From an uncultured Alphaproteobacteria bacterium (GTDB lineage: Bacteria > Pseudomonadota > Alphaproteobacteria > HIMB59 > GCA-002718135), in assembly GCA_902615845.1 (NCBI GenBank), contig CACMQS010000010.1, positions 682 to 64,681 of the forward strand: 64,000 bases of DNA, written 5' to 3'. Shown here piece after piece: positions 10,399 to 24,050 of the stretch. Position numbers and translations under genes: made by a program. The notes below the pieces were generated by a model. The model made no database searches, was not told the origin of the DNA, and saw only the letters and a program-made list of their open reading frames with translations. Each line of letters opens with the position of its first letter. The first letter of the stretch is position 1.

Positions 10399-11274
10399 TT
10401 ATAAATCCTTAAGTTGTTTTTTTTGAGCTTGAAGGGACAGAATTCCACTTAATACAATTAATACCGCTCCTATTAATGCAATAAAATTAAGATATTCATT
10501 AAAAAATATAATACCAATTAATAATGACCATAATATTTGTAAATAAAATAAGGCAAAAATTGATGAAAAATGATTTTTAGAATTTTGAAACGCATAGGTT
10601 ACAAGATAAACACCTATTAAAACAATTAAACCTGCAAATAATGAAATAAAAAATAATTGATAATTAATAAGTGGATCAAATATAAATAAAACTACAGAAA
10701 CCAAATTTATAGGTACTAATCCATATACAAAAAAACCTAAAGTTGTTGTAATATTTGAATATTTATTCGCTAAAAAACTCTGCAAGGCTAGAGTAAATGC
10801 ACCATAAATGGGAAATAAATAATAAAAACTGAAATATTGAAAACCTGGTTGTATAATAAATATAACACCAATAAATCCTAAAAAAATAGCAGTAGTTGTA
10901 AAATAATTTATTTTTTCTCCTAAAAATAAAATTGCTAGAATTGATCCTAAAATAGGTGAGATCATATTAAGAGTTGTCCATTCTGGTAATGTAATATTTT
11001 GTAAACTTATAAAAAGCATATACGGTAAAGGTAAAAATAAAAAACCTCTTAATATTAAAATTGAATAATTTGATGACCCTAAATAAGTTTTAATATTTCT
11101 AGTAAAGTATAAATATATAAATATTAAAATTAACCAAGGACTTCCAAAAAATACATGATGATAAAACTTAAATTCAATTTCTGTTAAATGATTTATTATT
11201 GCATCATGTATTACAAATAAATTTCCACCCAAAATTAATGACAAAGAACAATACAAAATTTTTTTATTAAACAT
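10399..11274 (-). CDS. DMT/EamA family transporter (paralogue of neighbour)
   Basis: Shares DAIIN, LPExTTLNM, IQPGF and YLQxLWSLL with 9501..10379. Confidence 0.85.
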   Translation of the reverse strand: MFNKKILYCSLSLILGGNLFVIHDAIINHLTEIEFKFYHHVFFGSPWLILIFIYLYFTRNIKTYLGSSNYSILILRGFLFLPLPYMLFISLQNITLPEWTTLNMISPILGSILAILFLGEKINYFTTTAIFLGFIGVIFIIQPGFQYFSFYYLFPIYGAFTLALQSFLANKYSNITTTLGFFVYGLVPINLVSVVLFIFDPLINYQLFFISLFAGLIVLIGVYLVTYAFQNSKNHFSSIFALFYLQILWSLLIGIIFFNEYLNFIALIGAVLIVLSGILSLQAQKKQLKDL

Positions 11275-11328
11275 TAATTACTATTTAGGGATTGTGTGAA
11301 TATAAAAAGTACTTATATTGATAGAGAG

Positions 11329-11625
11329 ATGAATACAAATGAAATAAAAACTTATCGTCTAATAATAAAAGGAAAAGTGCAAGGTGTTGGATTTAGGCAC
11401 TGGTTTAGTGATTTAGCAATTTCTTTAGGATTAAATGGATATGTACAAAACAAAGAAAGTAAAGATGAAGTAGAAGCTATTATTCAGGGAGATATGCAAA
11501 GTATTCTATCTATTACAGAGAAAGCGAAAGATGGTCCCTCACTTGCATTAGTTGAAGGAGTTATTCCTAGTAGCATTATAAGTAATGTTAAGTATTCTGG
11601 TTTTATAGTTAAATACGATACTTAA
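11329..11625 (+). CDS. acyP: Acylphosphatase
   Basis: GKVQGVGFR and GYVQN motifs. ATG at 11329 follows AGAGAG; ORF-track GTG is at 11296. Confidence 0.9.
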   Translation: MNTNEIKTYRLIIKGKVQGVGFRHWFSDLAISLGLNGYVQNKESKDEVEAIIQGDMQSILSITEKAKDGPSLALVEGVIPSSIISNVKYSGFIVKYDT

Positions 11626-12956
11626 TTAAATACTTGCTTTATAGTTTTATGAAGAGAATCAAAGATTTCATCAATTTGATTTTTTGTAATTATAAATTGA
11701 GGACACAAAACAATAGCATGACCTAAAGGTCTGCAAATTAATCCATTATCAATTGATAAATCAGCAACTTTATCTCCCATGTTAAGATAACCTTCGAATG
11801 GCTCTTTTGTATCTTTATTTTTTACCATCTCTAATGCTGCCATAAGACCTATACCTCTAGTTTCTCCAATGTGTGCATAATCATTAAATTCATTTAATCT
11901 TTCAAAAAAATAAGGTTCCATCAACTTTACATTGTCTAATAAACCCTCATTCATAATTACATCTATTGCTTTCAAAGCAATCGCACATCCAACAGGATGA
12001 CCGCCAGCTGTAAAACCATGTGGAAATTCTTCTGCTTCTTCTGCTACTTCAACTAATTTATCTGAAAATTCTTTATTAACTATAACTGCTCCCATAGGAA
12101 AGTACCCAGCGGTTAAACATTTAGATGAGATAATTATATCTGGTTTGATATTGTATGTATCGCAGCCCCATAAATTTCCAGTTCTACCAAATCCACAAAT
12201 TACTTCATCTGCGATAAAAGGAATATTATATTTTTTTAATATAGGCTGAACTAAATCAAAATACGATTTTGAAGGAGGTATACAACCTCCTGCACCTTGA
12301 ACAGGTTCTGCAACAAAACCTGCAATAGTTTCTGGATCTTCTTTGATGATTTTTTCTTCTAAATTTTTGGCCATCCTAAGAGAAAATTCTTCTTCCGTTT
12401 CATTCTCTAATCCATATTTCCAATAATGAGGACATTCAATATGAATAAATTCTTCAGATGGTAAACCAAACTCTTTATTATATGGTTTGGCTGTCATTGA
12501 AGAAGCTCCTAAAGTAACGCCATGATATCCATTAATTCTTGTTATAATTTTTCGTCTATTTGGCTTTCCAATTCTTGCATTTAACATCCATAACATTTTG
12601 ACCATGGTGTCATTTGCTTCAGATCCTGAATTACAAAAGAATACACGACCTTGATCAAAAGGTGATACTTCAATAATTTTTTCAGATAGCTGCAACGTTT
12701 CTTCAGACAATCTTCCAAATAAAGAATGATAACCAGCAAATTTTTCATACTGTTTTTTTGCAACTTCAATTAGTCCAGGATGGTCAAAACCAGCACACTG
12801 ATTCCATAGACCAGAATTCCCATCTAGATATTTATTACCTTTAGTATCGTAAACATATATTCCTTTTCCATAAGAAATAACTAAAGGCCCTCTTTCATTT
12901 AATGACTTCAAGTCAGTAAATCCATATAAATGGCTGGAAGTATTTCTTTGTAACAT
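11622..12956 (-). CDS. Class III PLP aminotransferase, omega/amine transaminase type
   Basis: LYGFTD, NSGLWN, SGSEAND, DEVICGFGRTG, SSK (PLP Lys) and FPHGFT motifs, matching the Vibrio fluvialis-type amine transaminase as I recall it. Confidence 0.9.
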   Translation of the reverse strand: MLQRNTSSHLYGFTDLKSLNERGPLVISYGKGIYVYDTKGNKYLDGNSGLWNQCAGFDHPGLIEVAKKQYEKFAGYHSLFGRLSEETLQLSEKIIEVSPFDQGRVFFCNSGSEANDTMVKMLWMLNARIGKPNRRKIITRINGYHGVTLGASSMTAKPYNKEFGLPSEEFIHIECPHYWKYGLENETEEEFSLRMAKNLEEKIIKEDPETIAGFVAEPVQGAGGCIPPSKSYFDLVQPILKKYNIPFIADEVICGFGRTGNLWGCDTYNIKPDIIISSKCLTAGYFPMGAVIVNKEFSDKLVEVAEEAEEFPHGFTAGGHPVGCAIALKAIDVIMNEGLLDNVKLMEPYFFERLNEFNDYAHIGETRGIGLMAALEMVKNKDTKEPFEGYLNMGDKVADLSIDNGLICRPLGHAIVLCPQFIITKNQIDEIFDSLHKTIKQVFN

Positions 12957-12980
12957 ATCAGTTAAATATTTTTTTTTATT

Positions 12981-13874
12981 ATGAAAAGCAAGATTTTATT
13001 TTCAGTTGGGACTATAGGTGTACTTTTTATGATGGCTGGCCAATTATCATTCTCTATAAATGATAGTTATGTCAAACTTGTTGTAAAAAATATAGGTGAT
13101 GATAATTCATTATATTCTGTAATTTTTTTAAGAGGTTTAGTTACATCAAGTTTATTAGGTTTATATTTAGTTTTTTTTGAAAAAAAAAATTTAATTAAAA
13201 TACTATCAATAAAAAGTTTTCATATAAGAGGTTTGTATGAAGTTTTAACAGCATTATTTTTTTTAGTTGGATTAATATTACTTCCAATATCTGAGGTTTA
13301 TACACTTTTAATGACTAATCCTTTCTTTGTAACAATATTTGCTTTTCTTTTTTTGGGAGAGAAAGTTGGAATAAGAAGATGGTGTGCAGTTATCATTGGG
13401 TTTTTAGGTGTGCTAGTAGTTGTAAATCCACAAAATTTTCAATTTAATTATCTTTTAGTGTTACCAATTTTAGCTGCTATTTTTTTAACTATTAGAGATA
13501 TTGCTACAAAAAGTTTAGCAACTAAATCAAATAGTGTTGAAATTACATTTGTGACAGCATTATTAATTACTGGGTTTGCAGGTTTGGGTTCAATTATTTT
13601 TGGTTATCAAGTAAGCGGTGAAGATGTAAATTATATTCTTGCTTCTAGTATATTTGTTTTATTTGGATATTTGTTTTCAGTATTAACAGTTTTTTATGCA
13701 CCACTCTCATTAACCGCCTCTGCAAGATACAGTGTAATTATATTTGGTATGATTTTTGGGTATTTGATACTAGGTGAAACTCCAACTTATAATATGATTA
13801 TTGGTGCAATAATTATTACATTAAGTGGTTTATTTGTAATCAAAAGAGAAAAAGAAATAGGTAAAATTAAATAA
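12981..13874 (+). CDS. DMT/EamA family transporter
   Basis: FLGEKVGIRRW and ILGETP motifs, multi-TM. Confidence 0.88.
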   Translation: MKSKILFSVGTIGVLFMMAGQLSFSINDSYVKLVVKNIGDDNSLYSVIFLRGLVTSSLLGLYLVFFEKKNLIKILSIKSFHIRGLYEVLTALFFLVGLILLPISEVYTLLMTNPFFVTIFAFLFLGEKVGIRRWCAVIIGFLGVLVVVNPQNFQFNYLLVLPILAAIFLTIRDIATKSLATKSNSVEITFVTALLITGFAGLGSIIFGYQVSGEDVNYILASSIFVLFGYLFSVLTVFYAPLSLTASARYSVIIFGMIFGYLILGETPTYNMIIGAIIITLSGLFVIKREKEIGKIK

Positions 13875-13878
13875 AAAT

Positions 13879-14322
13879 TTACTGATCCTTACAAAAATTA
13901 TAAACTTCTTCAACATGACCTTTAACTTTAACTTTATTCCAAGAATTTAGAATTTTTCCATTTTTATCGATTACAAATGTAGATCTATCTATCCCAAAAT
14001 ATTTCCTACCATACATAGATTTTTCTATCCAAATACCAAGTTTATCACAATTTTTTCCTTCATCCGAACCAAGTGGGTATTTCAATTTATACTTATCTGA
14101 AAATTTTTTATTCCGATCAACAGGATCTTTAGAAGCTCCTATTACATCAAAGCCAATTTTATTAAATTTTGTTAAATATTTCTGAAAATCTGCAACTTCT
14201 ACTGAGCATCCACCAGTTAAAGCCTTAGGGTAAAAGAATAAAACTGTTTTATTCTTTAATTTAGATGAATCAAACTCATTATCGTTTGTTAATTGAAGTT
14301 TTATCTTAGGAATTTTTTTCAT
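13879..14322 (-). CDS. bcp: Peroxiredoxin BCP/PrxQ
   Basis: FFYPKALTGGC with peroxidatic Cys, RSTFVID. Confidence 0.92.
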   Translation of the reverse strand: MKKIPKIKLQLTNDNEFDSSKLKNKTVLFFYPKALTGGCSVEVADFQKYLTKFNKIGFDVIGASKDPVDRNKKFSDKYKLKYPLGSDEGKNCDKLGIWIEKSMYGRKYFGIDRSTFVIDKNGKILNSWNKVKVKGHVEEVYNFCKDQ

Positions 14323-14324
14323 AA

Positions 14325-15446
14325 TTATACTACTAGTTTAAGACCGTACCCAGCTTTTTTAACTCTTGTTTTAAAATAATTTTTATTGAATTTATTCAAT
14401 GTTGGCTTTGTATTTATTTGATTTTCGACTTTAATTCCAGCTTTCTTAATAGAATTAATTTTATTTTTATTATTTGTAATAAGATTAACTTTATTTATTT
14501 TTAATAATTTCAGTATTCTAGCTGCAATATTAAAATCTCTTTCATCATCCAAAAAACCAATATTATGATCGGCGTCTATTGTATCCATACCCCTTGCTTG
14601 AAGAGAATAAGCTCTCATTTTATTAGCTAATCCTATTCCCCTACCCTCTTGTTCTAAATATAATATAACTCCACCATTATTTCTAACCATGTAATTGATT
14701 GATTGATTTAATTGCTCACCACAATCACATTTTAAAGAATGAAAAATATCACCTGTAAAACAAGCTGAATGTATTCTTAAATTAACAGATTTTTTATTTA
14801 TTTTTTTTGGATTAACAATTATCGCTACATGTTTATCAGATCCAATATATGATTTGAATATTTTAAAATTAGAATTTTCGTTTTTTGGTAATGGAACTTT
14901 TGCACTGGAAACTAATTTAATACTTTCACAAATTAATTCATTTTGTTTCAATAAATCTTTGTAGTCAAATATTAAAATTCCATTCTTAAATCCAAATTCG
15001 TTTATATTTTTGTAATATTTTTTATTAATTTTTTTAAAAACTAACGACGGTATCATTTTAGCATTTTTGGAAAGATCAATACAAACATTATGAAAATTTT
15101 TAGATTTGAATTTTTTAATATTGGTAAATTTAATTACTTTATTATTGCTAAGAGGGTTGACAAATAAATTTATTATTTGATTTACATCTGTTTTGGGATT
15201 TATCTCAAAATAAATATTACCTTTAATATTCTTATTAAAAATTGATTGAGCTTTTTGTTTAGTAATAAGTAGATATTTTTCATCAATTAAGTGCTTATTG
15301 AATTGATTGAAAATTTTACTTTGGGAATGCTCTATATTAAAGAACATCCAATATTCCTTGTTATTCTGAATTATTAAGGGTCTTCCGGTCCTGAGTTCGT
15401 TAATTGCCCTATCTATTATAGTGCCTGTATTAGATTTGAAACTCAT
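14325..15446 (-). CDS. ribA: GTP cyclohydrolase II with degenerate RibB-like N-terminal domain
   Basis: RIHSACFTGDIFHSLKCDCG (three Zn Cys), QEGRGIGL, RAY, LITNN. ATG at 15446 preferred over 15482. Confidence 0.9.
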   Translation of the reverse strand: MSFKSNTGTIIDRAINELRTGRPLIIQNNKEYWMFFNIEHSQSKIFNQFNKHLIDEKYLLITKQKAQSIFNKNIKGNIYFEINPKTDVNQIINLFVNPLSNNKVIKFTNIKKFKSKNFHNVCIDLSKNAKMIPSLVFKKINKKYYKNINEFGFKNGILIFDYKDLLKQNELICESIKLVSSAKVPLPKNENSNFKIFKSYIGSDKHVAIIVNPKKINKKSVNLRIHSACFTGDIFHSLKCDCGEQLNQSINYMVRNNGGVILYLEQEGRGIGLANKMRAYSLQARGMDTIDADHNIGFLDDERDFNIAARILKLLKINKVNLITNNKNKINSIKKAGIKVENQINTKPTLNKFNKNYFKTRVKKAGYGLKLVV

Positions 15447-15482
15447 GAAAACTTTATATAGATATAATTGAAATAAAAACAA

Positions 15483-16316
15483 ATGATTACATCAAAAAAT
15501 ATAGGAATTTTACTAGATTTTATAAAAAATTCTAAAAAGAATAGTGATTTATATTTATTGGTTAAAAAAAATAGTATTTCTTTATCATCAAAAAGAAAAA
15601 GTAATTTTTACATAAAAAATAATAATCTGGAATCTAAAATTAATATAAGTAAATTTTATCAATCAATCTTAAATATCCTTCTCCCGATATTAAAAAAAAA
15701 CAAAAAATTAGTTATAGCTCAGATAGGACAAAGTATTGATGGTAGAATTGCATTAAATAATGGTAATTCACATTACATAAATAATCCCAAGAGTATTATT
15801 TACCTACATTGTTTACGAAGTATCAGTGATGCAATTATTGTAGGCTCAAATACCATAAAAAAAGATGATCCCCTATTAACAACAAGAAAAATAAAGGGCA
15901 CAAATCCAAAAAGAATTATTATTGATGGCAGTCTTTCACTAAATAACAAATATAAAATATTTAATGACGGTAATGAAAATATAATTTTTACAAAAAGTAA
16001 TAAAAATATTAGATTAAATAATTCAACAATAATTAGGTTAAAAGAAAAAAATTTTACTAAAAACTTAATTACGCAAATAAAAAAACTTAAATATAAAAAT
16101 ATTTTAGTAGAGGGAGGATCAAAAACTATTTCAGAATTAATAAATAATAAATATATTGATATTCTTCAATTTATTATTGCCCCAATATTAATAGGTTCCG
16201 GAATTAATTCATTAAATTTAAAAAAAATTTCAAATCTCAATAAAGCTATCAGACCAAAACATAATTTTAATGAATTAGAAAATGAAATTATTGTTAATTT
16301 ATTTCTTAATAGCTAA
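15483..16316 (+). CDS. RibD C-terminal-type pyrimidine reductase (no deaminase domain)
   Basis: QSIDGRIA, DAIIVG, DDPLLTTR, LVEGG and APILIGSG motifs. No HAE/PCxxC deaminase motif. Confidence 0.85.
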   Translation: MITSKNIGILLDFIKNSKKNSDLYLLVKKNSISLSSKRKSNFYIKNNNLESKINISKFYQSILNILLPILKKNKKLVIAQIGQSIDGRIALNNGNSHYINNPKSIIYLHCLRSISDAIIVGSNTIKKDDPLLTTRKIKGTNPKRIIIDGSLSLNNKYKIFNDGNENIIFTKSNKNIRLNNSTIIRLKEKNFTKNLITQIKKLKYKNILVEGGSKTISELINNKYIDILQFIIAPILIGSGINSLNLKKISNLNKAIRPKHNFNELENEIIVNLFLNS

Positions 16317-17087
16317 AAAATCTGTATTATTTAAAATAAATCTAGAATTTTTTTCTTTAATACATTTTAAACGAAATTTTAACCAATCATCAAAGTTAAG
16401 TTTATTTTTTTGAATAATTTCTCTACAAAAATTTAAGAAATAAATTTGAAATTTATAATTTTTACTAACATCCCATGTAGAGTCTAAAACATATGTTTTG
16501 TGAGTCCTTTTAAATACTTTATTTATTAATTCAGTACAATCTGGTCCAACGGCCACTTCCCCTATTCCTTTGTCAGATTTTTGATCTTTATTAAAAATAT
16601 TAAGAATTTTTTTATCATCCTTGTGTTTTGGAAAAAATTTAAAATTACCGTTATAATTTAAGGCAAAGTAGACAATTTCTGTATCAACATTTAATTTATG
16701 AAAATTTTTAAACCATGTTTTTGGAAGAATATCTAAAAAAGCAGATCCTGTAACTAAATTATAATCATTAAGATTTATTTTTTCTAGATTATTAATTACA
16801 TCAACAATTTTAAAATTAGTTTTTTTTATTTTAGATGATAATTTTATATTTTTTTTAAAATAATTTGTTGATTGATGTGATATATCTACAAAAGACCAAT
16901 ATTGATTATTTAATAATCTCGATTTAAGAAATCTATAATTAGATCCAGCACCTGAACCTAAGTCAACTATTCTAATATTTTTTTTATTTTTAAAAAATTT
17001 ATTAATTAAATATAGTATTCTTTTATTTCTTGAATTCCTATCAACAGTTTCTCTAAGATTTAACCATTTATTTTGAAATTCATGCAT
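16299..17087 (-). CDS. Class I SAM-dependent methyltransferase-like protein
   Basis: IVDLGSGAGSN motif I, WLNLRE N-terminus, VTGSAFLD. Confidence 0.8.
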   Translation of the reverse strand: MHEFQNKWLNLRETVDRNSRNKRILYLINKFFKNKKNIRIVDLGSGAGSNYRFLKSRLLNNQYWSFVDISHQSTNYFKKNIKLSSKIKKTNFKIVDVINNLEKINLNDYNLVTGSAFLDILPKTWFKNFHKLNVDTEIVYFALNYNGNFKFFPKHKDDKKILNIFNKDQKSDKGIGEVAVGPDCTELINKVFKRTHKTYVLDSTWDVSKNYKFQIYFLNFCREIIQKNKLNFDDWLKFRLKCIKEKNSRFILNNTDFLAIKK

Positions 17088-17088
17088 A

Positions 17089-18135
17089 TTAAATTAAATT
17101 AACAAATTTCTTAGCTGACTCTAGAGGAGTAAGAAGATATCTTTTATTTTTATGAATATCAATATTTAGTTTTTTAAAATTTTTTTTATTTAATATATTT
17201 TTAATAATTATATTTCTAAGATCATTTACTTCAAATTTTTTGAAATAAATAACACCCTTTTTTCCTATTGTATTTAAGATAGTATTAGTGAAAAAGGTTA
17301 TAATTGGCTTTTTAATTATTAATGCATTTGCTAAAGACATACCAAAACCTTCATATTTACTTACCGAAATGTAACAATCTGTTTTAGAATATAATTTAGC
17401 TAATTTTGTATCTGAAATAGTACCATGGAATATTATTTTTCTGTTCATTGAATTTTTAGAAATAAATTTTTTAAGTTTTTTGTAATAACTTATATCTCTT
17501 GTAGTATCACCAACAATTTCTAAAATAAAATTATCTAAAGGCTTTAAAACTTTTAATAAAAAAAGATAATTTTTTCTATTTATTATACTTCCACATGTTA
17601 AAAAATGAATTTTACTATTATTTTTAAAATTATATTTTACAAGTCTTTCTATACCAGGTTCAACTACAGAAATTTTATTATTTAGTACCTTAAATTCATT
17701 TATTAATAAATTTTTTGTATTTTTAGAAGTCACAATAAATTTATTTATTTTTTTGAAATTTTCTTTTTCTAATCGTAAGAATTTTTTTGACCTATGACTT
17801 TTAAATTCAAGATATAAAGGATGATGTATTAGTGCGATGACATTATAAGTAAGTAATTTTTTAAAAATTGAATACATTCCTTCTAAAACTAATCCATCTA
17901 TGATAATTTTAGAGTCATGATCAATTTTATCTAAAATTTTTAGAAAATATTTTATATCGTTATTTGTAGGAAAAGGATAATTTTCACTTAGAGCAATTGG
18001 TCTAATATTTATATCTCTTATCTTTGCATATTCTAGGATATTTTTTTCATAAATATATCCTCCAGTTTTTGCATTAATGTTTCCTGGATAAACAAAATAA
18101 ATATCAGATTTATTTTTAGATAACCTCTTTTTCAT
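17089..18135 (-). CDS. Glycosyltransferase family 4
   Basis: TGGYIYE, HHPL, RKN and EGFGM motifs of GT-B/GT4. Start refined from 18153. Confidence 0.85.
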   Translation of the reverse strand: MKKRLSKNKSDIYFVYPGNINAKTGGYIYEKNILEYAKIRDINIRPIALSENYPFPTNNDIKYFLKILDKIDHDSKIIIDGLVLEGMYSIFKKLLTYNVIALIHHPLYLEFKSHRSKKFLRLEKENFKKINKFIVTSKNTKNLLINEFKVLNNKISVVEPGIERLVKYNFKNNSKIHFLTCGSIINRKNYLFLLKVLKPLDNFILEIVGDTTRDISYYKKLKKFISKNSMNRKIIFHGTISDTKLAKLYSKTDCYISVSKYEGFGMSLANALIIKKPIITFFTNTILNTIGKKGVIYFKKFEVNDLRNIIIKNILNKKNFKKLNIDIHKNKRYLLTPLESAKKFVNLI

Positions 18136-18514
18136 ATGATGCCCATGCAACATTTGATTCTTGCAAGGTTATTTTAATTTTTTTTAAAGATTTATAATCT
18201 TCAGAGAATTGATTTCTTAGTCTATTTAAGATCTTATTGCAGATATCCTCTGCTAAAAACTCTGTTGAGGTAATTTTACCCTTAAATTCATCAATTTCAT
18301 CTAAATTTTGATAATTATATATTTTAAGAATATCTTTTAAAGTCGTGGACACTATTCCTAAATCCATAATTATATTGTATTTATTTAGTTTATCAGTGAA
18401 AAATTCTGCATCTACTAAATATGTAGCTCCATGCATATTTTGAGCTGGTCCAAATACTTCTCCAGGTAATGAATGAGCTATTAGAATATTTTCTCTTACT
18501 TTTATAGAATACAT
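18116..18514 (-). CDS. 6-pyruvoyl-tetrahydropterin synthase/QueD-like T-fold protein, non-canonical (PTPS-IV-like)
   Basis: AHSL, FGPAQNMHGATY, NLD, STEFLA and ES motifs. Lacks the CxxxHGH motif of QueD/PTPS. Confidence 0.85.
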   Translation of the reverse strand: MYSIKVRENILIAHSLPGEVFGPAQNMHGATYLVDAEFFTDKLNKYNIIMDLGIVSTTLKDILKIYNYQNLDEIDEFKGKITSTEFLAEDICNKILNRLRNQFSEDYKSLKKIKITLQESNVAWASYEKEVI

Positions 18515-18516
18515 AA

Positions 18517-19476
18517 TTAATATTTAATTAGATGCATTATTGTATCTTTATTTTGAAGGATTTTATAGTAATCTTTTTCTAAATCAAAAAAATTACTTTC
18601 ACTAGTAATTAATTTTTCTAATTTTGAATTTTTTAAAGATTTAATTGCTAATTTTAATCTCCCCTCAAAATCATATTTATTTTTCATGTATTTTGGTATT
18701 TTAGATACCTGTGAACTAATAATTTTTAATCTTTTAGAATGAAAATACCCGCCTAAGGCAACTTCTCCTTTATTTTTACCATACCAACTAGCTTCTACTA
18801 TTTTTCCTTCGATAGATAATTTTTCCAATAGAGAATTTAAAACTTTATAATTAGCTGTAGTATTTATTGCTACATCTATTTTCTCAATCTTTCTTATATC
18901 AATAAAATTTAATCCTAAATAATTGGCAATTTTTCTTTTATTTTTATTATTATCATAAACATAAACATTTTTATATCCATTAATTTTAAAAAAAAATGCA
19001 GTTAATAATCCTACAGAGCCAAGCCCTACAATTAGAATTTTGTTATTACTTTTAGATTGAGCGTCCCAAAAGATATTAATAGCTGTTTCCATATTTGCAG
19101 TTAGAACATATTTTCTCAAATTTCCTTTAGGTAAAAAAATTAAATTTTGAATAGAAATTTCATATAAATCCTGATGAGGATAAAGACTAAATATTTTTTT
19201 ATTTATATATTCCCTTGGACCATCGATAATATTCCCAACATTTATATAACCGTATTTTATAGGTAAATTAAAAGAACCCTCTTGAAAAGGGGCTTTCATT
19301 AATTCAAATTGATCCTTACTTACGCTTTTAGATGAAATTAATTTTTCAGTTCCCTTGCTAATACCTGAGTAAATAGTTTTAACTAAAACTGTTTTGTTAT
19401 TTTTATTGTAAACAAGTTTTTTTTGATAAATTTTAGCTTGTTTTTTTTTATCAATCCATAAAGAATAAGATTTCAT
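18517..19476 (-). CDS. MDR-family (zinc-binding alcohol dehydrogenase-like) oxidoreductase
   Basis: SGISKGTE, KYGY, ANMETA, Rossmann motif GLGSVG, SWYG, SSQV. Confidence 0.8.
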   Translation of the reverse strand: MKSYSLWIDKKKQAKIYQKKLVYNKNNKTVLVKTIYSGISKGTEKLISSKSVSKDQFELMKAPFQEGSFNLPIKYGYINVGNIIDGPREYINKKIFSLYPHQDLYEISIQNLIFLPKGNLRKYVLTANMETAINIFWDAQSKSNNKILIVGLGSVGLLTAFFFKINGYKNVYVYDNNKNKRKIANYLGLNFIDIRKIEKIDVAINTTANYKVLNSLLEKLSIEGKIVEASWYGKNKGEVALGGYFHSKRLKIISSQVSKIPKYMKNKYDFEGRLKLAIKSLKNSKLEKLITSESNFFDLEKDYYKILQNKDTIMHLIKY

Positions 19477-19489
19477 AATTTACTTATAA

Positions 19490-20257
19490 ATGTATAATAA
19501 AAAAATGCTAACAAACTTTTGGGAAGAATTAACAACAAATGAAATTAAAAAAATAAATAGAAAAACAGTTTTAATTTTCCCATTTTCATCAATAGAACAA
19601 CACGGTCCGCATCTTCCATTAAATACTGATAAAAAAATTCTTGAAGGAATATTATTAGAATTTAATAAAAAATATAATTCAAATAAATATTTAATTATGC
19701 CTGAAATATATTTTGGTTCAGCTGCTGAACATACAGATTTTGATGGAACAATAAGTATTGATTCATTGGAATTTATATCGCACTCTTTGTCAATATTAGA
19801 AAATGTATGTAAATTGAAATTTAAAAATATATTACTTTTAAATAGTCATGGTGGACAAATTAGCCATATAGATATTATTGCTAAAGAATTGAAATCAGAA
19901 TTTAAGATAAACATAGTAAAAGGCACATATTTTTTATTTGATCAATTTAAAGGAATTATATCAAGTAAAGAAAAAGACTTTGGTTATCACGGTGGAGAAT
20001 TTGAAACATCTATTATGTTATATTTATTTCCAAACCTAGTTAGGCAATCTAAAATTTCTAAACATAGATTATCCTCCGATTATTTATCATCTAAAACCAT
20101 TTCTTATGAGAAAAATATTAAAAAAGCTTGGGTAACTAAAGAATTAAGTAAAAGTGGAATTATTGGAGATCCTAGAAAATCCAATGCACAGACAGGAAAA
20201 AAAATAATTGATAGAGTAACTCAAAAATTAAATAAAATAATAAATGAGATGTTTTAG
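19490..20257 (+). CDS. Creatininase/ArfB-family amidohydrolase
   Basis: EQHGPHLPLNTD, NSHGG, HGGEFETS and GIIGDP motifs. Confidence 0.88.
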   Translation: MYNKKMLTNFWEELTTNEIKKINRKTVLIFPFSSIEQHGPHLPLNTDKKILEGILLEFNKKYNSNKYLIMPEIYFGSAAEHTDFDGTISIDSLEFISHSLSILENVCKLKFKNILLLNSHGGQISHIDIIAKELKSEFKINIVKGTYFLFDQFKGIISSKEKDFGYHGGEFETSIMLYLFPNLVRQSKISKHRLSSDYLSSKTISYEKNIKKAWVTKELSKSGIIGDPRKSNAQTGKKIIDRVTQKLNKIINEMF

Positions 20258-20280
20258 ATTTTTATTTATAAAGAATTAAA

Positions 20281-20844
20281 TTAAAAAAATTTTTTGTATA
20301 TCTCATTGTACTCACAATCATATACCTCACAGTTATCTAGCATATATTCAGTTATTTGACTTAAGAATGTACCATGACTGACTAATACAATTTTTTGTAA
20401 ATTAAGGTTTTTGATAGATAGTAGAAAAGATCTTAATCTAATTTTAATATCATTGTGAGACTCTTGTATAATTTTTTTTTCATTAATAGGTTTGTTATTA
20501 TTCCACCAAAAATCATTTAAATTATTAAAATCAAAATTATTAAATTCTTTTTTTAATTTTTTTGGTTGTCTTCCTACATCACATGAGTGGTACAAATGTT
20601 CTCTTATTAATGGTTCAATTACAGGTTTATTAGATGGAAAAACAATAGAGAATGTTTCCAATGTTCTTGTTAAGGGGGAGCAAAAATAATTATCAAATTT
20701 AAGATTTTTAATTCTATTATTTAATTTTTTTGCTTGCTCAACTCCTCTTTTAGTAATTCTTGCATCATAATAATAAGTTGGATTATCTAAATCTGATGCT
20801 GCATTAGCTTCTGACTCTGCGTGTCTAATAAGATATAATTTCAT
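20281..20844 (-). CDS. Histidine phosphatase family protein
   Basis: LIRHAES, SPLTRT and VSHG motifs. Confidence 0.85.
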   Translation of the reverse strand: MKLYLIRHAESEANAASDLDNPTYYYDARITKRGVEQAKKLNNRIKNLKFDNYFCSPLTRTLETFSIVFPSNKPVIEPLIREHLYHSCDVGRQPKKLKKEFNNFDFNNLNDFWWNNNKPINEKKIIQESHNDIKIRLRSFLLSIKNLNLQKIVLVSHGTFLSQITEYMLDNCEVYDCEYNEIYKKFF

Positions 20845-20899
20845 TTTTTAACTATAAATACGATAAACGTTCATACATAGGTAAGAATAAAACTTAATT

Positions 20900-21037
20900 T
20901 TATTTACGAGAAGAAACGGCTAATAGTAGCGGCACAATCATAACTAAGGTTGTTAAGACTGACGGATTAAATAGCCAATAAAGAACGCCTAGAGAAAATA
21001 TTAACATCCAGAATTCATTTTTATATAAAAATTTCAT
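20900..21037 (-). CDS. Putative 45-aa hydrophobic small protein
   Basis: Manual translation: MKFLYKNEFWMLIFSLGVLYWLFNPSVLTTLVMIVPLLLAVSSRK. Fills the gap directly downstream of mtkB on the same strand. Confidence 0.55.
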   Translation of the reverse strand: MKFLYKNEFWMLIFSLGVLYWLFNPSVLTTLVMIVPLLLAVSSRK

Positions 21038-21052
21038 TATTTTTTAATTATA

Positions 21053-21949
21053 TTAATTCAAATTATTTTCTACTAATACTTTTTTCACAGTCTCACCCAT
21101 TACAGAAGGATTTTTGGAAATTGTAACTCCACACTCTTTAAGAAGCTCTACTTTTTCTATTGCACTTTCACCATAAGCAGAAACAATTGCGCCAGCATGC
21201 CCCATCACACGACCTTTGGGTGCAGTTAGTCCTGCTATATACGCAATTACTGGTTTACTCATATTTTTTTTAGCAAATTGTCCAGCTTCAACTTCTTGTG
21301 GTCCACCTATTTCACCTATCATTAAAACTGCAATAGTTTCATCATCATTTTCAAACTTTTCAATTATATCTCTAAAAGAACTTCCATTTATTGGATCGCC
21401 TCCTATACCTACACTTGTTGAAACACCAATTTCCAAATCTTTAAGTTGTTGTGCAGCTTCATATCCCAAAGTGCCAGATCTGCTAACTATTCCTATTTTG
21501 CCTTCTTTGTAAATATGACCAGGCATTATACCTAACATAGATTTACCAGGGCTAATTATTCCTGCACAATTCGGACCTACTAATCCCATTTTTTTATCTT
21601 TTGGATATCTCCTCATATATCTTTTTATTTTAACCATATCATGAGAAGGAATACCGTCCGTAATAGCCACACATGTTTTAATACCTGCATCAGCAGCTTC
21701 CATTGCTGAGTCTGCTGCAAAGGCTGGTGGGACAAATAAAATTGATGTTGATGCTCCTGTTTGATCTACAGCTTCTTTAACAGTATTAAAAACAGGAAGA
21801 TTTAAATGAGTCATACCACCCTTACCAGGTGTTACCCCACCAACAACGTTAGAACCATACTTAATCATTTCTTCAGCATGAAAACTTCCAATTTTTCCAG
21901 TGAAACCTTGGACTAAAATCTTTGTATTTTTGTGTATGATTATAGACAT
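21053..21949 (-). CDS. mtkB: Malate--CoA ligase (malate thiokinase) alpha subunit, SucD-like
   Basis: GVTPGKGG, GPNCAGIISPGKSMLGIMPG, GHAGA phospho-His. The KRYMRRYPK insert and mcl context favour Mtk over SucD. Confidence 0.82.
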   Translation of the reverse strand: MSIIIHKNTKILVQGFTGKIGSFHAEEMIKYGSNVVGGVTPGKGGMTHLNLPVFNTVKEAVDQTGASTSILFVPPAFAADSAMEAADAGIKTCVAITDGIPSHDMVKIKRYMRRYPKDKKMGLVGPNCAGIISPGKSMLGIMPGHIYKEGKIGIVSRSGTLGYEAAQQLKDLEIGVSTSVGIGGDPINGSSFRDIIEKFENDDETIAVLMIGEIGGPQEVEAGQFAKKNMSKPVIAYIAGLTAPKGRVMGHAGAIVSAYGESAIEKVELLKECGVTISKNPSVMGETVKKVLVENNLN

Positions 21950-21951
21950 GA

Positions 21952-23112
21952 TTATCCAAGAGCCTTTACTGCTTTATTTGCTGCATCTTCTAAAGTTGAT
22001 GCTTCAATGTAATTAATATTGCTTTTTTTAAGAATTTCATTTCCCTTTTCGACATTAGTTCCAGCTAAACGTATAACTAACGGATGTTTAATTTCAATTT
22101 TTGATAAAGCTTGAACAATTCCTTCTGCAACCCAATCGCATCTATTAATACCTGCAAAGATATTAACTAATATAACCTTAACTTTTGTGTCCATAGAGAT
22201 TAATTTAAAAGCTTTAACTATTTTTTCAGGTGTTGCACCTCCACCAACATCTAAAAAATTGGCAGGTTCGCCACCAGCAAGTTTTATCATATCCATTGAA
22301 GCCATTGCTAAGCCTGCACCATTAATAATATTACCAATATTCCCATCTAAGCTTACATAATTCATTCCTCTGTCAGAAGCATAAACTTCATTTGAATTTT
22401 CTTGTGTCTTATCTCTAAGTTCTGCAATTTCATCTCTTCTAAACATTGCATTATTATCAAAGCTCATTTTACAATCTAATGCTAATATTTCATCTTTGTG
22501 TGATACAACTAATGGGTTAACTTCAACCATTGTCGCATCAAGCTCACTAAAAGCTTTATAACAACCTATAATTGTATTTGCAGCTCTTGAGATCAATTTG
22601 GATTCAATTCCTAGACCAAAAGCAATTTCTCTTGCTTGAAATTGTTGAATACCAACTGCTACTTCTATTTTTGATCGTATAATTGTTTCAGGTTTTTCTT
22701 TTGAAATTTCTTCAACACTCATTCCACCTTCTGTTGAAGCTACAACCATTATACTTTCTGAAGATCTATCAAACACTAAACCTAAATATAATTCGTGTTT
22801 GATATCAGTTGCTTCTTCAATATAAATTCTATTTATTATCTTACCTTCTGGACCAGTTTGATTTGTAATTAATTTTTTACCTAACAATTTATCAGTTGCA
22901 TCAGCAACTTCTAACGGAGAATTACATATTATAATTCCTCCCGCTTTACCTCTAGCACCTGAGTGAACTTGCGCTTTTACAACCCATTTTGAACCACCAA
23001 TTTCTCTTGCTTTGTTTTCTGCATTTTCTGGACTATAAACAATACCACCAGTCGGAATTTTAACACCAAAATCAGACAATATTTTTTTTGCTTGATATTC
23101 GTGTATATCCAT
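21952..23112 (-). CDS. mtkA: Malate--CoA ligase beta subunit, SucC-like
   Basis: MDIHEYQAK, GARGKAGG, and NIFAGINRCDW (Mtk-like; SucC has GGIxRCD). Confidence 0.82.
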   Translation of the reverse strand: MDIHEYQAKKILSDFGVKIPTGGIVYSPENAENKAREIGGSKWVVKAQVHSGARGKAGGIIICNSPLEVADATDKLLGKKLITNQTGPEGKIINRIYIEEATDIKHELYLGLVFDRSSESIMVVASTEGGMSVEEISKEKPETIIRSKIEVAVGIQQFQAREIAFGLGIESKLISRAANTIIGCYKAFSELDATMVEVNPLVVSHKDEILALDCKMSFDNNAMFRRDEIAELRDKTQENSNEVYASDRGMNYVSLDGNIGNIINGAGLAMASMDMIKLAGGEPANFLDVGGGATPEKIVKAFKLISMDTKVKVILVNIFAGINRCDWVAEGIVQALSKIEIKHPLVIRLAGTNVEKGNEILKKSNINYIEASTLEDAANKAVKALG

Positions 23113-24050
23113 TACTTGCTCTCAATTAATTTATTTATATTTACAATATTTTCAGCCATTCTAGCAGATGCAGCGTCGATCATTCTTCCATCAAGCTGAG
23201 CAGCACCCTTTCCTTCAGCAGCTGCTTTTTCTAATTCTAATAATATTTTTTTTGCTTTATCTATTTCTTCTTTGGGTGGAGAAAAAACTTCATTGGCTAA
23301 ATCTATTTGCGATGGATGTATTGCCCATTTACCCTCAAAACCAATTGCTGCAGCTCTTTTTGCAGCATCTAGATATCCTTTTTTATCATTAAAATCACCA
23401 AAAGGTCCGTCTATTGCTCTTAAGCCATATGATCTACAGGTCATTACTAGAGTTGATAAGCCATGATGCCATTGATCACCAGGGTAATCAGGATTTAAAC
23501 CTCCTATGACAACAGTTCTTGCTCGCATACTTGCAGCATAATCTGCAACTCCAAAATGTAATGCTTCTAGTCTTGAACTTGATTTTGCAATTGATTGAAT
23601 ATTAGACATTCCTAGTGCTGTTTCAATTAAACATTCTAAACCTATTCTATTTTCAAATTTTTTATTTTGCTCAATTTGATTAAGCATACAATCAACCATA
23701 TATACATCAGATGATGAGCCTACTTTTGGAATTAATAATGTATCAACCCTATCACCTACCTCTTCTATAATTTCAATCACATCACGATACATATAGTGTG
23801 TATCCAAACCGTTAATTCTTATAGAGATTGTTTTACCTTCTTCTTTCCAGTTATATTCTTTTATTGCATTAATAACATTTCTTCTTGCATCAATTTTATC
23901 ATTTGGAGATACTGCATCTTCTAGGTCTAAGAAAATATAATCGGCATTTGATTTTAATGCTTTTTCAAACATCTTTGGATTAGAGCCAGGAACTGCCAAT
24001 TCACTTCTGTGTAATCTAGATTTAGCAGGTTTATAAAATAAATGGCTCAT
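23112..24050 (-). CDS. mcl: Malyl-CoA/beta-methylmalyl-CoA lyase (CitE/HpcH fold)
   Basis: RLHRSELAVPGSN, FLDLEDAV, RINGLDTHYMYRD and GKWAIHPSQ motifs as in Methylobacterium-type Mcl. Confidence 0.88.
   Translation of the reverse strand: MSHLFYKPAKSRLHRSELAVPGSNPKMFEKALKSNADYIFLDLEDAVSPNDKIDARRNVINAIKEYNWKEEGKTISIRINGLDTHYMYRDVIEIIEEVGDRVDTLLIPKVGSSSDVYMVDCMLNQIEQNKKFENRIGLECLIETALGMSNIQSIAKSSSRLEALHFGVADYAASMRARTVVIGGLNPDYPGDQWHHGLSTLVMTCRSYGLRAIDGPFGDFNDKKGYLDAAKRAAAIGFEGKWAIHPSQIDLANEVFSPPKEEIDKAKKILLELEKAAAEGKGAAQLDGRMIDAASARMAENIVNINKLIESK

Follow-up and report, generated by a model that had tools for sequence, protein, structure and literature searches.

A seven-gene PTPS-IV cluster in an uncultured marine alphaproteobacterium probably draws GTP into a pathway separate from riboflavin and folate

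We analyzed a 64,000-nucleotide stretch of DNA (the window) from an uncultured Alphaproteobacteria bacterium (HIMB59; GCA-002718135; assembly GCA_902615845.1, contig CACMQS010000010.1, positions 682 to 64,681). Seven adjacent open reading frames (ORFs) with outer limits at 14325-20257 probably form a single cassette, a trimmed version of the PTPS-IV/SCO6650-type cluster, which would draw GTP into a pathway separate from those of riboflavin and folate. The ORF listing agrees with the coordinates given by an earlier sequence-only reading of this DNA. The seven genes encode a RibA-like GTP cyclohydrolase II (GCH II), a reductase-only RibD homologue (RibD_C), a class I S-adenosylmethionine (SAM)-dependent small-molecule methyltransferase, a GT4-type glycosyltransferase, a PTPS-IV subfamily T-fold protein, an NAD(P)-dependent dehydrogenase of the MDR superfamily and a creatininase-family metal-dependent amidohydrolase. 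The best explanation overall, which we somewhat favor, is a route that GCH II feeds and that ends in a pterin-like or ribitylaminopyrimidine-like compound bearing a sugar and a methyl group. The cluster is a well-supported example of an orphan type already known rather than a novel sort of system; the points brought by the present analysis are the Tyr-type RibA here, the membrane gene missing here, and FolE and FolE2 not found family-wide.

The sequence-only reading had placed the PTPS-like gene in a neighborhood that recurs in other genomes, and these genes do indeed co-occur. A pattern scan with one genome per species matched at least 600 stretches, at least 590 of which were confirmed relatives, and 80 PTPS-IV loci from four phyla (Actinomycetota, Pseudomonadota, Gemmatimonadota and Bacteroidota) were kept for counts; these are not independent events because more than half of the loci are from Streptomyces. 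A phmmer search with the window proteins against all ORFs of the 80 loci found MDR in 73, GT4 in 68, creatininase in 52, RibA in 50, methyltransferase in 38 and RibD_C in 26; the figure for the methyltransferase is a minimum, since an AT-rich query has little detecting power. All six partners of PTPS-IV were found together in 10 of the 80 loci. When the count was restricted to the 51 loci in which PTPS has 6 kb or more of sequence to either side, MDR was present in 50, GT4 in 43, creatininase in 41, RibA in 42, methyltransferase in 25 and RibD_C in 19. The MDR gene adjoins PTPS on the same strand in 67 of the 80 loci and GT4 follows PTPS in 67, and this MDR-PTPS-GT4 core recurs across all four phyla. 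A neighborhood of the PTPS-IV node containing PF00925 and PF01872 is described in PMC5445326, where PF00925 is mislabeled as GTP cyclohydrolase I/FolE2; the 5.9-kb window cluster holds genes of both families.

Gene fusions support a functional linkage. The protein P0171 joins MDR and PTPS-IV, and in P0259 (1,032 aa) PTPS-IV, a methyltransferase-like segment and MDR are fused. Furthermore, at the locus L041 the RibD_C and creatininase matches lie in one open frame and the GT4 and methyltransferase matches in another. We did not count as evidence a set of metagenomic PTPS-GT4 'fusions', in which PTPS residues 1 to ~100 are followed by GT4, because the PTPS and GT4 genes overlap in bacteria and frameshifted gene calls could give the same pattern.

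The extent of the unit is best seen in the 11 SAR11-type loci (L009-L019). Four of these (L009-L012) have all seven genes within window-like PrxQ, EamA and histidine-phosphatase flanks, and two (L013 and L015) are interrupted by contig ends. Another four (L016-L019) hold the seven genes in identical order and on identical strands, with 59-70% protein identity to the window cassette, and are flanked by a glutathione S-transferase gene on one side and by genes for a CMD-family protein and an MFS transporter on the other. Because the seven-gene order is kept with different flanks, the shared block is exactly the seven genes.

The suggestion that the genes are retained under selection also held. 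Ratios of nonsynonymous to synonymous substitution rates (dN/dS), calculated by the Nei-Gojobori method against two close relatives (L010 and L011), were 0.02-0.05 for RibA, 0.02-0.08 for PTPS-IV, 0.07-0.15 for creatininase, 0.11-0.12 for RibD_C, 0.13-0.23 for MDR, 0.16-0.30 for the methyltransferase and 0.22-0.25 for GT4. These values, all within 0.02-0.30, indicate that all seven genes are under purifying selection. Of the 115 family genomes, 64 were found to have PTPS, and all 64 belong to the genus of the window (63 of 103 once the window's own genome is set aside), a count that underestimates prevalence because contig ends cut the cluster in some genomes. Among genomes at least 85% complete, the MDR gene was found in 17 of 21 from the genus and in none of the six from other genera; thus the cluster is near-core in the genus and absent from six sister-genus genomes. 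We considered and rejected true absence in two genomes in which PTPS was not found, G032 (C5:1-704) and G091 (C17:1-243), where assembly breaks lie inside the cluster, within GT4 and within RibA, respectively. G032 is one of the four apparent MDR absences among the 21, which in this case reflects a contig break and not a loss.

All seven gene-family assignments of the sequence-only reading stand, five by Pfam matches above cut-off and the other two, methyltransferase and MDR, which fall below it, by AlphaFold2 models searched with Foldseek. Among NCBIfam models, RibA alone passes a curated cut-off, at the level of subfamily, and none of the seven proteins reaches an equivalog.

The PTPS-like protein (18116-18514, minus strand, 132 aa) matches Pfam PTPS with 74.5 bits (cut-off 22.4) and is, by its motif and closest relative, a clear PTPS-IV member of COG0720. 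It contains the FGPAQ motif (...VFGPAQNMHGATY...), which PMC5445326 gives as the PTPS-IV signature; across 41 PTPS-IV representatives F21, G22 and A24 are invariant and P23 nearly so. The only close solved relative is SCO6650 from Streptomyces coelicolor (PDB 3D7J; phmmer E 7.4e-34 over residues 1-129 of 132), and a family profile built from the 41 representatives matches 3D7J at E 5e-54. The connection to PTPS-IV and SCO6650 made in the sequence-only reading is thereby confirmed. Profile alignments with canonical PTPS (1b66, 2g64 and 3i2b) show that the catalytic Cys has been replaced by Ala, HGH by HGA and the DH of DHKNLD by NY, while the glutamates of TTE and of the C-terminal ES are kept. 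SCO6650 itself reportedly has no zinc and no triad in its structure, with the pterin-binding residues kept. The PTPS-IV family, of modest size, comprises 1,055 representatives at E <=0.001 and 415 clusters at 50% identity at E <=1e-10 among 1.84 billion. Four proteins of 375-855 aa (P0144, P0146, P0124 and P0123) contain three tandem PTPS-IV repeats, and the P0144 cluster includes records from Emiliania huxleyi and Gephyrocapsa oceanica, so that the family reaches haptophyte algae in triplicated form. Modeling of an MDR + PTPS-IV complex gave the verdict 'no answer' (score 0.00), which weighs neither way on binding.

The cluster RibA (14325-15482, minus strand, 385 aa) matches PF00925 (GTP_cyclohydro2) with 166 bits (cut-off 23.3) and NF001591 with 217.7 (cut-off 148). 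Its GCH II domain (residues 193-356) is preceded by an unnamed domain of approximately residues 1-190, for which an Atlas search returned unnamed clusters and a weak lead (0.79) to DHBP synthase. Translation probably begins with the ATG at residue 13, as the TTG start of the ORF abuts the RibD_C start codon; the PRK08815 alignment begins at residue 14. Compared with E. coli RibA (2bz0), the protein keeps the three zinc cysteines (C-x10-C-x-C) and Tyr105 (here Y292). When the RibA homologues of 50 loci were aligned, the Tyr105 site was Met in 33 actinomycete loci and His in 4, and Tyr in L022, L030, L052 and L083 as well as in those SAR11-type loci, eight in number, that extend as far as RibA. 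Creatininase accompanies Tyr-type and Met-type RibA alike, and is present in all 11 Tyr-type loci other than L083.

The RibD homologue (15483-16316, plus strand, 277 aa) matches PF01872 (RibD_C) with 108 bits (cut-off 24.1) over residues 77-243, and Pfam found no deaminase domain in it. Its score is under every NCBIfam equivalog cut-off, and its PDB relatives are RibD reductase domains and diaminopyrimidine reductases of the archaeal/fungal type (2hxv, 2azn and 6p8c).

The MDR protein (18517-19476, minus strand, 319 aa) belongs to a distinct conserved family. The Pfam matches to ADH_zinc_N and Glu_dehyd_C lie under cut-off (24.8-25.8 bits), the best NCBIfam match, to BchC, is weak, and a sequence search of the PDB found no close relative. 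An AlphaFold2 model made from an alignment of cluster homologues had a predicted local distance difference test (pLDDT) score of 95.4, and its top Foldseek matches were glucose, threonine, butanediol, xylitol and sorbitol dehydrogenases and the ribulose-5-phosphate reductase TarJ, which place it at the family level only (template modeling (TM) score 0.7-0.78, identity 11-18%). Columns conserved in the family include S40, G42, T43, E44, P100, H101, Q102, E130, T131 and N134, as well as a Rossmann motif with invariant G151, G153 and G156. At the probable positions of the zinc-ligand Cys and His residues, the family has conserved Ser40 and Tyr77.

The methyltransferase (16299-17087, minus strand, 262 aa) has weak Pfam matches under cut-off (~18-19 bits). 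Four invariant columns (D42, L43, G46 and G48) were read as the SAM motif, and an AlphaFold2 model, again from cluster homologues, had a pLDDT of 93.2. This model matched many generic small-molecule class I SAM methyltransferases in Foldseek (E 1e-9 to 4e-14, TM score <=0.67), and the Atlas search returned generic methyltransferase clusters only. The glycosyltransferase (17089-18153, minus strand, 354 aa) matches Glycos_transf_1 (PF00534) with 68.7 bits (cut-off 26.4) and Glyco_trans_1_4 (PF13692) with 50.7 bits; Glyco_transf_4, with 27 bits, is slightly under cut-off, no NCBIfam equivalog is reached and the PDB matches are distant only. The creatininase homologue (19490-20257, plus strand, 255 aa) has a strong Pfam Creatininase match (188 bits, cut-off 31.3) and aligns with creatinine amidohydrolases in the PDB at E 1e-9 to 4e-12, but scores under the equivalog cut-offs for MftE (107 vs 172), creatininase (80 vs 235), IolN (55 vs 245) and ArfB (31 vs 180). 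It is the sole member of its family in the genome.

A further gene is common in this neighborhood elsewhere. A gene of the LPG_synthase_TM family (PF03706) lies inside the cluster in 48 of the 80 loci, and in L070 a CDP-alcohol phosphatidyltransferase gene stands beside the MDR gene. The LPG_synthase_TM gene is absent from all 11 SAR11-type loci, and a profile of the 48 homologues found no match in the window's genome, which is 82.7% complete (1.35 Mb in 34 contigs). The window cluster is thus apparently a trimmed, all-soluble version and not the typical set, judged from these sequence matches.

The genome also contains a separate set of riboflavin genes. A complete rib operon (ribH, ribBA, ribE, a full deaminase-reductase ribD, and nrdR) lies on contig C6, which holds the only ribH, ribE and full ribD of the genome, so the RibA/RibD pair of the cassette is not the sole entry to riboflavin. 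Within 10399-24050 none of the scanned ORFs (the 109-aa ORF at 11296-11625 was left out) is a riboflavin, folate or queuosine gene, in line with the reported absence of riboflavin synthase, lumazine synthase, folate and queuosine genes next to the cluster; no FolE, QueC or QueE gene was found near it. The genome has three GCH II homologues. The third is a stand-alone RibA of 196 aa (C5:54033-54623; L098:2033-2623) that scores above the ribA equivalog-domain cut-off, lies between PRA-CH (hisI-type) and Cupin_5 genes and is ~9 kb from the folate operon. The cluster RibA is 40% identical to this protein, and the cluster RibD_C is 33% identical to the housekeeping RibD. In line with the 40% identity, a GCH II tree indicates that the cluster RibA was not recently derived from either of the two housekeeping copies, although the base of this tree is unresolved, with long branches and compositional bias.

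A pabB-pabA-pabC-folP-folB-folK operon lies on contig C5 (C5:59860-64601; L098:7861-12602), outside the window. FolE (PF01227) and FolE2 (PF02649) were not found in this genome, and each was found in none of the 115 family genomes (11 of them high-quality). Because the family has folP-folB-folK without FolE or FolE2, some GCH II-based pterin route must exist. A divergent TrpF-family gene of 216 aa (23 bits in Pfam; <=41 bits against NCBIfam cut-offs of ~170-230) lies tail to tail after the C5 folate operon, and a gene of this kind is within 100 bp of folK in all 21 genomes, from five genera, in which both genes are whole. It looks like part of a dedicated RibA + TrpF-like bypass of FolE, by analogy with Chlamydia, for which the stand-alone C5 RibA is a candidate supplier. 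In many genomes an additional, distant TrpF homologue (23-29% identity) is encoded elsewhere. We rejected the cluster as a FolE replacement for folate, since the TrpF-like gene adjoins folK and four of the six sister-genus genomes that lack the cluster hold folK (G106, G111, G113 and G114, but not G105 and G107). CofD/FbiA (PF01933), the sole F420 family searched, was found in none of the 22 genus genomes at least 85% complete (six of them high-quality).

How might the seven enzymes work together? The chemical leads include the zinc cysteines and Tyr kept in RibA, a RibD_C without a deaminase, the ring-anchoring glutamates that PTPS-IV keeps while its catalytic set is lost, and an MDR fold nearest to polyol/sugar dehydrogenases. 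By the chemistry of its family, the Tyr-type GCH II would open GTP to 2,5-diamino-6-ribosylamino-4(3H)-pyrimidinone 5'-phosphate, after which the deaminase-less RibD_C might convert the ribosyl to a ribityl group in the archaeal/fungal order, with the 2-amino group kept. Keeping this group accords with a T-fold protein whose conserved glutamates would hold a 2-amino-4-oxopyrimidine ring. The MDR protein, which resembles polyol dehydrogenases, could then re-oxidize a hydroxyl of the side chain. If this oxidation were at C2', the product would be an amino-ketone such as arises from an Amadori rearrangement, which could close on the 5-amino group to give a 7,8-dihydropterin with a phosphorylated trihydroxypropyl side chain. 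The PTPS-IV T-fold may bind the intermediate and either assist ring closure or reshape the side chain. GT4 would add a sugar and the SAM methyltransferase a methyl group. Adams et al. 2014 (PMC4161248) showed experimentally that the isomerized GCH II product gives dihydroneopterin monophosphate through an Amadori step, so a pterin outcome is chemically plausible; an un-cyclized ribitylaminopyrimidine glycoside would fit these observations too.

Of the seven proteins, the creatininase-type hydrolase is the hardest to place in this scheme. The Met form of GCH II in S. coelicolor, SCO6655, is said to stop at the formamidopyrimidine nucleotide; if so, a creatininase acting as an ArfB-kind deformylase makes sense in Met-type clusters, and the actinomycete enzymes would fit a formamide hydrolase of this kind. 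The window RibA keeps the Tyr that goes with complete GCH II chemistry, so here a deformylase would seem redundant and amidohydrolysis is less obvious than in Streptomyces; the enzyme may instead hydrolyze another amide.

We consider a pterin-type outcome possible, with a chance somewhat short of even. A fuller scheme, in which pterin synthesis is independent of GTP cyclohydrolase I and runs from GCH II through a reductase/dehydrogenase pair, or through PTPS-IV doing the equivalent of the Amadori step, to a new soluble, methylated pterin glycoside that perhaps protects against oxidative stress or light, is more speculative still and, taken whole, rather unlikely. For an antioxidant or light-related role of the product there is only a hint, which comes from neighboring genes.

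Several observations weigh against the GCH II-fed route that we favor. The whole of its chemistry is inferred from family membership, and for MDR and the methyltransferase the Foldseek matches are at the family level only (TM score <=0.78, identity 9-18%). Only 26 of the 80 loci hold RibD_C (19 of the 51 whose flanks are complete), so that a reduce-then-reoxidize sequence could be universal only if housekeeping enzymes substitute. Creatininase occurs with both Tyr- and Met-type RibA, and a deformylase role therefore fails to account for it in this cluster. An un-cyclized diaminopyrimidinone would suit the retained PTPS-IV residues as well as a pterin does, and these residues thus do not separate a pterin from a pyrimidine outcome. 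Furthermore, Zallot et al. 2016 cite, as unpublished work, an involvement of PTPS-IV in F420 synthesis. Finally, our literature search found no publication identifying the product of the cluster, as the sequence-only reading had said, although one may be in print beyond the search.

A rival explanation is that the ring is never closed, and that the product is a glycosylated, methylated ribitylamino- or free aminopyrimidine glycoside, with MDR and PTPS-IV acting on the side chain only. RibA followed by a deaminase-less RibD_C is indeed the archaeal/fungal route to 2,5-diamino-6-ribitylaminopyrimidinone phosphate, and the pyrimidinone ring itself would suit the residues that PTPS-IV has retained. 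Polyol phosphates are common acceptors for GT4 enzymes, and GCH II-derived pyrimidine glucosides such as vicine are known in plants. However, what is universal in the cluster is a T-fold from a pterin-handling family together with a polyol dehydrogenase, and not RibD_C. Cyclization of the isomerized GCH II product to a pterin (PMC4161248) also argues for closure, and we regard an open-ring product as unlikely. GT4 enzymes often make glycolipids as well, which, with the in-cluster LPG_synthase_TM gene of 48 loci and the phosphatidyltransferase of L070, would fit an end product that is a membrane or envelope glycoconjugate, whose GTP-derived head group is glycosylated and then exported or flipped. 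For this to apply in the present genome, the pathway would have to work where the membrane gene is found in none of the 11 SAR11-type loci and its profile finds no match, and with seven proteins that match soluble enzyme families only; we consider this distinctly improbable.

The cluster could instead supply a known cofactor (riboflavin, F420/FO or the pterin of folate) by a second route. RibA and RibD_C are enzymes of the riboflavin/F420 type, the unpublished PTPS-IV-F420 link points the same way, and a family with folP-folB-folK in which FolE and FolE2 were each found in 0 of 115 genomes has need of a pterin source. Each of these cofactors meets an obstacle: the rib operon elsewhere is complete and the cluster has no lumazine or riboflavin synthase gene; the CofD family was found in 0 of 22 genus genomes; and folK occurs without the cluster in 4 of 6 sister-genus genomes, with the folK-adjacent TrpF-like gene as the better bypass candidate. 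Moreover, none of them has a role for a glycosyltransferase and a methyltransferase, and we think such a route very unlikely indeed. Hardly credible, in our view, is that these are unrelated neighbors packed together by genome streamlining. Genes are densely packed throughout this genome, and promoter-like sites are no commoner than in shuffled sequence, but co-occurrence and order across four phyla, a seven-gene block with different flanks, and the fusion proteins all speak for a unit.

The GCH II-fed route to a modified pterin-like or pyrimidine-like compound can be compared with several known systems. One is the SCO6650-SCO6655-type locus of S. coelicolor: in Streptomyces, MDR is upstream of PTPS and GT4 downstream, and RibA and creatininase homologues are in the cluster. 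Streptomyces-type loci differ in having Met (33 loci) or His (4) where the window RibA has Tyr, like E. coli RibA, and most actinomycete loci have LPG_synthase_TM and lack RibD_C, whereas the window cluster shows the reverse. The early riboflavin/F420 steps of archaea and fungi similarly bring together a GTP cyclohydrolase, a creatininase-family hydrolase and a deaminase-less RibD_C. In contrast to these, the window proteins score under the equivalog cut-offs (ArfB 31 vs 180, rib_reduct_arch 92 vs 186), no lumazine synthase, riboflavin synthase or F420 genes follow, and a bacterial-type rib operon is present elsewhere. That operon differs from the cluster in its turn, where the RibD homologue lacks a deaminase and both lumazine synthase and riboflavin synthase are missing.

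In the RibA + TrpF bypass of FolE/FolQ in Chlamydia (PMC4161248), the intermediate is of the type to which the RibD_C + MDR or PTPS-IV step proposed here would lead. Unlike that bypass, the cluster has no TrpF-family gene, and it would add glycosylation and methylation, which are needless for folate. The window PTPS-IV protein shares its T-fold family with canonical PTPS/QueD (PTPS-I, -II and -III), with profile matches to 2g64, 1b66 and 4ntk, but it has lost the catalytic Cys, one zinc-binding His and the Asp-His pair; the CxxxHGH, CxxxxxHGH and ExxHGH motifs given in PMC5041015 and PMC5445326 are absent from it.

Precedents for glycosylated or methylated pteridine-type products are found in the pterin glycosides of cyanobacteria and in toxoflavin (GCH II ToxB, RibD ToxE and methyltransferase ToxA), and the latter is also a precedent for GCH II feeding a product other than riboflavin. 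The cyanobacterial pterins start from GTP cyclohydrolase I, which was not found in the 115 family genomes. Toxoflavin clusters have a full deaminase-reductase and are not known to include PTPS-IV, MDR or GT4.

The PTPS-IV/SCO6650 cluster has been noticed for well over a decade and occurs in at least 590 species-level genomes, without a published product that we could find. The window copy, compact, made of seven apparently soluble enzymes without a membrane component, under purifying selection and from an abundant marine lineage, is a practical set for heterologous expression and stepwise reconstitution. If a pterin is indeed made without GTP cyclohydrolase I, this would be a new branch of GTP-derived cofactor chemistry and would bear on genome-based predictions of vitamin and cofactor capacity in ocean bacteria.

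Four of the seven genes, MDR, PTPS, GT4 and methyltransferase, follow one another on the minus strand; intervals of 2 and 1 nt separate them except at the PTPS-GT4 junction, where the first 38 nt of GT4 are shared with the end of PTPS. The creatininase gene is divergent from MDR at a distance of 13 nt, RibD_C is convergent with the methyltransferase gene with an 18-nt overlap, and RibA is divergent from RibD_C. The window is AT-rich (~19-34% G+C per 2-kb window) and densely coding. Its lowest G+C, 19.4% compared with ~25-30% in most other 2-kb windows, is at 16001-18000, which covers the methyltransferase and GT4 genes, also the two with the highest dN/dS. A promoter and terminator scan, which is uninformative in DNA this AT-rich, gave 57 promoter-like sites vs 65 expected in shuffles. 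In 14 RNA runs, 22-33% of sampled words were found; carried-over DNA is possible and we make no claim of expression.

The neighbors in 10399-24050 are two EamA transporters, an aminotransferase, PrxQ, a histidine phosphatase, CoA-ligase subunits and an HpcH aldolase. The PrxQ/BCP peroxiredoxin gene (13879-14322, minus strand) lies 2 nt beyond the end of RibA. Both versions of the cassette adjoin genes of the peroxide-defense type, PrxQ in the window and, in the second version, glutathione S-transferase (L018:7455-8153) and the CMD protein (L018:14597-15004), whose family includes AhpD; as this was seen in two contexts only, it could be coincidence. On the other side, a histidine-phosphatase-family gene (20281-20844, minus strand) stands tail to tail with the creatininase gene. 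Its protein has weak matches of the alpha-ribazole phosphatase and phosphoserine phosphatase-like kind, and it is shared with relatives that are 98% identical, whereas the second version of the cassette lacks it; the enzyme could take the 5'-phosphate off an intermediate, or be unrelated. Beyond it, three consecutive minus-strand genes at 21053-24050 encode the alpha and beta subunits of a CoA ligase (succinyl-CoA or malate-CoA ligase type) and an HpcH/citrate-lyase-type aldolase, an arrangement resembling a malyl-CoA ligase/lyase set.

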